Assembly (NCBI RefSeq): GCF_048403405.1
Contig: NZ_CP183129.1
From: Escherichia coli
GTDB lineage: Bacteria; Pseudomonadota; Gammaproteobacteria; Enterobacterales; Enterobacteriaceae
Length of the DNA: 64,000 nt
Reading direction: 5' to 3' (one strand)
Under the pieces are notes generated by a model. The model was not told the origin of the DNA. It ran no database searches and was given only the letters and a program-made list of their open reading frames with translations. The translations under genes were made by a program, and so were the position numbers. This document shows, in pieces, positions 34,999 through 35,917 of this stretch; within the stretch, counting starts at the first letter, position 1; every line of letters starts with the position of its first letter.

Positions 34999-35917
34999 GA
35001 ATCTTGACCTTTTTTGCTGTTATCGCCACTCCCTGCCGTGGAAGTCAGCTTAGAACAATGTACTCCCCCAGGACGGCGTTTTGAAGGTCTGCAGAATAAG
35101 ATTTTGCCAGAGGGGAAGACTCGATTGTGCTGTTAATAACTTAATAATGGCAAAATAATGAGGTGTATATGCTTAGTAATTAATGTTATGTAGTGAATTG
35201 TTCTGATTCTTAATTGTGAGCGTGGTTTTTTTATCTGTAAGATAATTGTTTGAAAATGCCTCGTTTAAGAATTCACTAATGAATCGTGATGATGATATTT
35301 CCGCATTACGGAGAGTTTAACAGCGTGATGATTTCCGAGGTGTCGTAATGGGTGCAAGGTGTGAAACTATTGTTAAGCGGGATTAATGTATGAGGATGAT
35401 GCTAATTAATTATTATTTAATATTCAAAAAGGTTTTGTTGTGCTTATTAATAATAGAAGATTACTTTGCCTAACATAACATAACTTTGCATCAGATAATT
35501 CGCAATGACCCTTATAAATAAAAGGTTTTTGGGGTAAAATGCTCGCATAAATGACGGATCCCTGCTCTTGATGCCGCCTCACCATTGCTGTTTGTACGTG
35601 TTCGCGTATGACCAGCGATGCTGCACGAGAGTGGAACAAGGACTCACATTTACATTTATACAAACACGCGCATGTCATAAATACAAAAGAGTGAGTAACT
35701 TAATAGATATGCGATTCCTGAAGATATATTCTGTGATCTACTTCAGGCATTATAACGGAACAATGTGAGTCGCTTTTTTAGTGCAACTCATATGCATTTT
35801 TACTTTCGTCCGGGTTCCGGATGAAACTGCCAGGGAGGCACATTACAAATGGAATTGCTTGTTTGTGTGTGCACAGCATTAACCAGCTCAGTATGAGCCG
35901 CCAGTAAGTGATAATAT

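Follow-up and report, generated by a model that had tools for sequence, protein, structure and literature searches.

What lies between the divergent genes alaA and lrhA of Escherichia coli, and does so long and AT-rich a gap hold foreign DNA, a hidden RNA or ORF, or control elements for the two genes at its edges? The sequence analyzed was a 64,000-nucleotide stretch of an E. coli chromosome, called the window here, and all positions are those of the window unless stated otherwise. On the minus strand, alaA encodes an alanine transaminase of 405 amino acids (33781..34998); on the plus strand, lrhA encodes a LysR-type regulator of 312 amino acids (35918..36856). The flagged stretch is a published control region of these two genes, neither foreign DNA nor a hidden gene, and as such it is real but ordinary and already known. 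Two leads remain beyond the literature: a near-invariant, unexplained hairpin that would start the alaA mRNA, and recurrent insertion sequences (IS) in the lrhA leader of natural isolates.

Extent, composition and conservation of the alaA-lrhA spacer

The divergent spacer between the two coding sequences coincides exactly with 34999-35917 and is 919 bp long, so the initial annotation, which had described an AT-rich gap of about 920 bp, placed the gene edges correctly. The GC content was 0.383, whereas the window as a whole had 0.518. A value as low as that of the spacer occurred in just 2.4% of 919-bp windows, and the sole lower one was near 54 kb. Within the spacer, the local minimum was 0.31-0.33 in 200-bp windows, and segment 35369-35546 had a GC content of 0.29. 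The description "unusually long" was also justified; the spacer is the longest in the 41-kb annotated neighborhood, followed by lrhA-nuoA (628 bp) and ackA-yfbV (337 bp). Its counterpart in K-12 MG1655 is 2406642-2407560, the window having the opposite orientation to K-12. RefSeq places no annotation in the spacer, either in K-12 or in a strain that is 100% identical to the window. The spacer was found in 5425 of 5426 complete E. coli genomes. Compared to K-12, identity was 97.0% over the 919 bp and 99.2% over the lrhA leader, and 20 of the 28 substitutions fell in one segment, 35109-35368.

Several published observations converge on this spacer. Genomic SELEX by Shimada et al. (2014) located RNA polymerase RpoD holoenzyme peaks inside the "920 bp-long lrhA-alaA" spacer, and the authors grouped it with the csgD-csgB spacer as a long promoter spacer served by multiple factors (PMC3946193). 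OmpR ChIP signal is elevated across the spacer. Lrp binds lrhA and activates it, and Lrp ChIP signal also lies over the spacer. Transposon insertions in the lrhA-alaA spacer of the ST131 E. coli strain EC958 result in hypermotility. In Serratia, alaA is likewise the divergent neighbor of the orthologous regulator gene, pigU, and transposon insertions in the alaA-pigU spacer cause over-expression of pigU; the same paper cites an insertion in the E. coli lrhA-alaA spacer that over-expresses lrhA (PMC10810281).

An alignment of 79 sequences divided the spacer into conserved and poorly conserved parts. Mean identity was 0.63-0.91 for 34999-35108, fell to 0.25-0.49 for 35109-35368, rose to 0.61-0.69 in two islands (35369-35428 and 35489-35548), fell again to 0.27-0.44 for 35549-35828 and was 0.54-0.79 for 35829-35917. 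These islands match the promoters and the 3' end of the lrhA leader, and the absence of any sequence conservation, which would have spoken against a regulatory role, was not what we found. We consider it very probable that the spacer is an ancestral composite control region of two divergent genes, with the 371-nt lrhA leader serving as a platform for small RNAs (sRNAs). In this arrangement, the alaA side would comprise approximately 110 bp with a sigma-70 promoter, an Lrp-like box upstream of it and a leader of about 52 nt that opens with a conserved hairpin. The lrhA side would comprise AT-rich upstream sites and a TTATAA-17-TAAAAT promoter directing transcription from 35547 into the 371-nt leader. 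The last 90 nt or so of that leader would form an unstructured platform on which Hfq-dependent sRNAs pair and lower LrhA synthesis, and the level of LrhA would in turn act on flhDC (motility), fimbriae and rpoS. Approximately 260 bp of fast-evolving, AT-rich filler would keep the two sides apart.

The filler (35109..35368, GC 0.35) was 92.3% identical to K-12, compared to 97-99% for its neighbors, and in 70% of E. coli genomes it was only 90-95% identical to the window. It diverges faster than all of its surroundings, with six changes relative to K-12 clustered at 35175-35181; its length is nevertheless kept across genera despite the divergence. Within E. coli, conservation of coding DNA was below that of the leader and above that of the filler. 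At a threshold of 99% identity to the window, the 371-nt leader passed in 89% of 5420 genomes, compared to 12% for alaA coding DNA of equal length and 4% for the filler. The segment 35795-35917 passed the same threshold in 5417 of the 5420. Comparison with E. albertii and a divergent Escherichia sharpened the contrast; the last 89 nt of the leader were 100% identical where coding DNA was 90-93% identical, the first 282 nt of the leader 75-83% and the filler 66-69%. The pairing region, 35829-35917, is under purifying selection (100% identity in E. albertii vs. 90% for coding DNA).

The lrhA promoter and its 371-nt leader

Melamed et al. reported an lrhA mRNA with a 371-nt 5' UTR (eLife 2023, PMC10578931). 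Their fusion primer SM079 has the 3'-terminal sequence ATAAATGACGGATCCCTGCT, which corresponds to 35547-35566; taken with the published UTR length, this sets the start site at A35547 and the 5' UTR at 35547..35917 on the plus strand, with the ATG at 35918. An older, shorter lrhA 5' UTR annotation exists, and Bilusic et al. found no start site there (PMC4152368). The proposal in the initial annotation that the spacer is a long regulatory region and leader for lrhA was, therefore, correct. The core sigma-70 promoter (35512..35546, plus strand) has its -35 hexamer, TTATAA, at 35512-35517 and, after a 17-nt spacer, its -10 hexamer, TAAAAT, at 35535-35540. Relative to the published start site, both hexamers are correctly spaced. 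The -10 hexamer reads TAAGAT in most genera, and the alignment showed cTTATaaata and G.TAagAT to be conserved at a level of at least 70-90% across genera. Upstream, the alignment consensus contained a conserved element, AGATnAnTCGCAATAA, at 35490..35509 on the plus strand (about -55 to -40 of lrhA). The consensus of the 79 sequences also held AT-rich elements, TGTGAAAnnnAATGTTAAG..ATTAATG ... AATTAATTATTATTTAATATT, at 35360..35425 on the same strand (about -190 to -120), which are probable transcription factor sites judging from their conservation.

The first 280 nt or so of the leader are not conserved and could not be aligned between genera. The conserved 3' part (35829..35917, plus strand), the putative sRNA and Hfq platform, carries the motifs AAAUGGAAUUGCUU, CACAGCA and ACCnGUAAGUGAA; CACAGCA, at -46 to -40 relative to the lrhA start codon, is nearly invariant across genera. 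RNAalifold applied to 48 leaders returned 0 pairs for a consensus structure in this part. Conservation here thus acts on the primary sequence, and invariant single-stranded motifs would be as expected of an sRNA/Hfq landing platform rather than of a riboswitch.

Regulation through this leader has been demonstrated by others. UhpU represses an lrhA-lacZ fusion, with pairing proven by compensatory mutations, and ArcZ and RprA also repress the lrhA fusion in reporter assays (PMC10578931). McaS forms the most RIL-seq chimeras with the lrhA leader yet causes no repression, and the authors suggested that McaS itself may be inhibited (PMC10578931). Hfq co-immunoprecipitates RNAs of 150 nt and 350 nt from "ig-lrhA-alaA" (Bilusic et al., RNA Biol 2014, PMC4152368), so that binding of Hfq to the leader is documented by both co-immunoprecipitation and RIL-seq (PMC10578931, PMC4152368). 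The lrhA mRNA is higher in an hfq mutant, and total RNA contains the leader fragments in barely detectable amounts (PMC4152368). With its far-upstream start site, the compensatory pairing in the literature and the purifying selection on its pairing region, the long 5' UTR is a target hub for Hfq and sRNAs. The K-12 locus described in these studies (PMC10578931, PMC4152368, PMC3946193) has the same start site, UhpU site and flanking genes as the window and differs from it by strain-level polymorphisms only.

The sequences of UhpU and ArcZ used for pairing were taken from K-12. The UhpU site, CGCCAGU at 35899..35905 (plus strand), pairs over 7 nt with ACUGGUG of UhpU. The published lrhA-M1 gBlock (...GAGCCGCGAGT) differs from the wild type (...GAGCCGCCAGT) by a change from C to G at 35902, and since this mutation locates the site, the UhpU site alone was treated as fixed. 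Only Escherichia, Salmonella and some Citrobacter have the site, which agrees with the published view of UhpU-lrhA pairing as a late gain, and the "M1" base, G at the position equivalent to 35902, occurs naturally in the Citrobacter freundii group. For the other sRNAs, complementarity points to a candidate RprA/McaS site, UGUGUGCACAGCAUU, at 35866..35880 (plus strand), which would pair with the shared seed UGCUGUGUG, and to a candidate ArcZ site, (U)GCCAGGGAGG, at 35828..35838 (plus strand), opposite UUUCCCUGG of ArcZ. A sliding duplex scan with 24-nt segments gave plausible sRNA sites, the best energies of which were no better than those of shuffled seeds, and the ArcZ and RprA/McaS coordinates are for this reason tentative. 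RNAduplex runs with whole molecules (the leader against ArcZ, RprA, McaS and UhpU) produced long duplexes full of loops.

Long 5' UTRs that act as sRNA hubs of master regulators are known from rpoS, csgD and flhDC. The lrhA leader resembles them in length, in Hfq dependence and in receiving several sRNAs, of which RprA, ArcZ and McaS are shared with these other leaders. It differs in that only its last 90 nt or so are conserved, and in the sign of regulation compared to rpoS, which ArcZ and RprA activate while they repress lrhA (PMC10578931). In Photorhabdus and Xenorhabdus, the orthologous regulator gene, hexA, has a conserved CA-rich site for ArcZ pairing about 50 nt ahead of its start codon (bioRxiv 10.1101/2020.08.24.265355). 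That site, as described in the publication, resembles the invariant CACAGCA of lrhA. In the E. coli hierarchy for motility, fimbriae and RpoS, LrhA holds a position close to the top, and a link to CRISPR-Cas control has recently been made; several stress-responsive sRNAs enter the motility, fimbriae and RpoS decision through the long lrhA leader.

The initial annotation had also suggested that the region could hide an sRNA, which would be either an independent, trans-acting molecule or a set of Hfq-bound leader fragments with a trans function of their own, such as sponging McaS, RprA, ArcZ or UhpU. The two Hfq-bound RNAs of 150 nt and 350 nt, the abundance of McaS chimeras without repression (along with the authors' suggestion of McaS inhibition) and the extreme conservation of the 3' part of the leader are all compatible with such a role. 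However, the spacer contains neither a terminator-like site nor an evident separate promoter; the sole terminator-like site in 34900-36000 is inside alaA (34947-34966), and promoter-like matches in a 9-of-12 consensus scan were no more frequent than in shuffled sequences. A scan of the whole window gave no Rfam match above the gathering score in the spacer, the low abundance of the fragments in total RNA also speaks against such a role, and target sites acting in cis explain the conservation equally well. The suggestion, therefore, holds in a weak sense only, as published Hfq-bound fragments of the lrhA leader (PMC4152368), and not as an independent sRNA gene, and overall we consider an RNA acting in trans improbable. 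The only permissive Rfam match, to STnc170 at 35247-35322 on the minus strand, reached 20.4 bits (E = 0.06), with the cut-off at 80. STnc170 sits next to SL1458, at another locus, in Salmonella, and we rejected the match as a chance similarity in AT-rich DNA.

A leader that senses a metabolite or a protein (a riboswitch or attenuator), or that contains a small regulatory upstream ORF, would also be long, and such elements are frequent in long leaders. The segment 35547-35940 folds more stably than shuffled sequences (MFE z = -2.95), as such an element would. Against this stand the lack of an Rfam match and of a terminator-like hairpin, the lack of a consensus structure, and hence of covariation, in the conserved 3' part, and the lack of conservation between genera over the first 280 nt. 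Every ORF in the spacer is broken in close relatives, and one is broken in K-12 itself. None of the five ORFs of 33-84 amino acids was kept; each is interrupted by a stop or a frameshift in at least one of K-12, a divergent Escherichia, E. albertii, Citrobacter and Salmonella. Two of these had been named at the outset as probably non-coding, a judgment that our comparison upheld, with an internal stop in K-12 for 35568-35768 on the plus strand and disruption in the divergent Escherichia, E. albertii, Citrobacter and Salmonella for 35424-35678 on the minus strand. Sensing by the leader or regulation by an upstream ORF is highly improbable.

Ancestry of the spacer and the predicted alaA promoter region

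The low GC content of the spacer raises a further possibility, voiced in the initial annotation as "xenogeneic-silenced": a horizontally acquired, AT-rich insert coated by H-NS, with lrhA behind a silenced leader. H-NS favors AT-rich, curved promoter DNA, and the GC content (0.383 overall and 0.29 for 35369-35546) is as low as such an insert would require. However, the distribution of the spacer is not patchy. A scan with one genome per species yielded 80 lrhA loci, and alaA was the divergent neighbor in 78 of them (the E. coli representative and 77 further species). Across the species loci, the spacer measured 764-1140 bp, mostly 900-1010 bp, with a GC content of 0.35-0.44. A spacer of this length and composition, found with the same gene order in 77 species loci of Enterobacteriaceae, is ancestral to the family, which rules out a recent foreign origin. 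The most AT-rich part is also the most conserved part. A repeat search in the spacer of the window gave short chance pairs only, and neither mobility genes nor other mobile-element features were present. Furthermore, ordinary strains express a functional lrhA, and the genomic SELEX table that flags H-NS-bound spacers leaves lrhA-alaA unmarked (PMC3946193). Silencing of an acquired insert has, in our judgment, only a very small chance of being correct.

The conserved block on the alaA side, 34999-35108, was 99.1% identical to K-12 and 64-94% identical in ten other species of several genera. Reading on the minus strand, it contains a predicted sigma-70 promoter (35057..35085) with the -35 hexamer TTCAAA at 35085..35080, a 17-nt spacer and the -10 hexamer TACATT at 35062..35057. 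Among 45 distinct alignment rows displayed, the hexamers were nearly invariant (TTCAAA at -35, with few rows reading TTCTAA) and the spacer between them was variable, a pattern of the kind that a real promoter leaves. The promoter was absent from the 9-of-12 consensus scan because it matches at 8 of the 12 positions only. We infer from this pattern that TTCAAA-17-TACATT is the alaA promoter, with a start near 35050. The conserved -10 hexamer would place the start near 35049-35051, and the predicted 5' UTR would span about 52 nt (34999..35050, minus strand). The genomic SELEX study listed a different best-match promoter for alaA, TTAAGA-17-TATAAC, which corresponds to about 35213..35185 (PMC3946193); that sequence is not conserved between genera.

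A short way upstream of the -35 hexamer is a conserved Lrp-like box, CAAAATCTTATTCTG (35092..35106, minus strand), with 2 mismatches to the Lrp consensus. The box reads CAAAATCTT(A/C)TTCTG, and the block CAAAATCTTCTTCTG is kept upstream of the -35 hexamer in most genera. Control of alaA by Lrp has been reported. A scan with the Lrp consensus gave 9 matches in the whole window compared to 7.7 expected, which is not an enrichment; 2 of the 9 were inside the spacer, one of them being the conserved box at 35092-35106. The scan is suggestive of Lrp as a protein that may bind this box.

The predicted alaA leader begins with a hairpin, GCUGACUUCC-ACGGCA-GGGAGUGGC (35025..35049, minus strand), which RNAalifold returned from 78 sequences. 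Its 13-nt core, CUUCCACGGCAGG, was nearly invariant across these 78 Enterobacteriaceae sequences. The top pairs were invariant, and one lower pair covaried (A-U in 50, G-C in 14 and G-U in 11). The 20-nt block containing the hairpin had a mean identity of 0.91, which equaled or exceeded that of all flanking coding blocks displayed (0.75-0.96) except one in lrhA. A search of Rfam gave no match to the hairpin, and a literature search found no description of it. The simplest reading is that it guards the 5' terminus against mRNA decay that depends on the 5' end; the invariant loop hints at something beyond a stabilizer. The leader motif, CTTCCACGGCAGGRAG, was also used in a metagenome scan as a possible marker of a regulon. 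Among the 120 matches listed, 115 were chance matches on GC-rich environmental contigs; the other 5 were from Enterobacteriaceae, and all were alaA leaders.

A classic LysR-type divergent promoter, with a short spacer of about 100 bp and a T-N11-A box, was rejected for this 919-bp spacer, in which T-N11-A motifs are trivially frequent owing to its AT-richness, and we found no evidence of LrhA control of alaA.

Insertion sequences in the lrhA leader and features elsewhere in the window

The lrhA leader was non-contiguous in approximately 60 of 5420 complete E. coli genomes (about 1%), a count that may include clonal copies. For comparison, interruptions numbered 11 in the lrhA coding sequence, which is 2.5-fold longer, 1 in 371 nt of alaA and 5 in the filler, making the density per base in the leader about 14 times that of the lrhA coding sequence. 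By tiling, most breaks lay at about 35635-35831, and the conserved last 90 nt contained few. The seven cases inspected represented at least seven structurally distinct events involving IS1, IS3 and IS5-family elements, with a span of 35387-35877 in the window. These included an IS5 insertion at CTAA 35470-35473, an IS5 that replaces part of the lrhA promoter and leader (35387-35777), an IS1A insertion at 35712-35720, an insertion of an IS5-family element at 35869-35877, an IS3 insertion at 35635-35637 and an IS1 with loss of a segment at about 35470-35686. The seventh case, from E. coli SCPM-O-B-12142, is a deletion bounded by IS1 that extends from 35166 in the spacer to elaD, so that lrhA is lost together with the whole nuo operon (NADH dehydrogenase I).

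The region upstream of flhDC is a known hot spot of IS insertion in E. coli, and the lrhA leader resembles it in that IS1, IS3 and IS5 insert recurrently in regulatory DNA of motility master control. We tentatively propose, as a possibility that we do not favor over its alternatives, that the lrhA leader and promoter are a naturally selected hot spot of IS-mediated rewiring. If selection is responsible, rather than target preference or clonal copies, isolates would repeatedly retune LrhA by cutting lrhA off from its promoter and upstream leader, and such retuning would reach motility, fimbriae, RpoS and CRISPR-Cas in parallel with the flhDC hot spot.

Several other features of the window were recorded. 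A second long AT-rich spacer, lrhA-nuoA (36857-37484, 628 bp, GC 0.36-0.44), lies upstream of the nuo operon, and a promoter has been listed in it by genomic SELEX (PMC3946193). Rfam matches elsewhere included naRNA4, a REP-derived nucleoid-associated RNA, at 11484-11554 (plus strand) and the nuoG RNA motif at 42342-42384 (plus strand), inside the nuo operon. At the left edge of the window, on the minus strand, a C4 antisense RNA (39-126) lies beside isrK (162-236). Such a pair is characteristic of remnants of P4/P1-like prophages. The stretch with the lowest GC content in the window, at about 54100-56000 (0.32 over 919 bp), lies around a frameshifted elaD, as placed by map offset, and is a better candidate than the alaA-lrhA spacer for foreign or H-NS-bound DNA.
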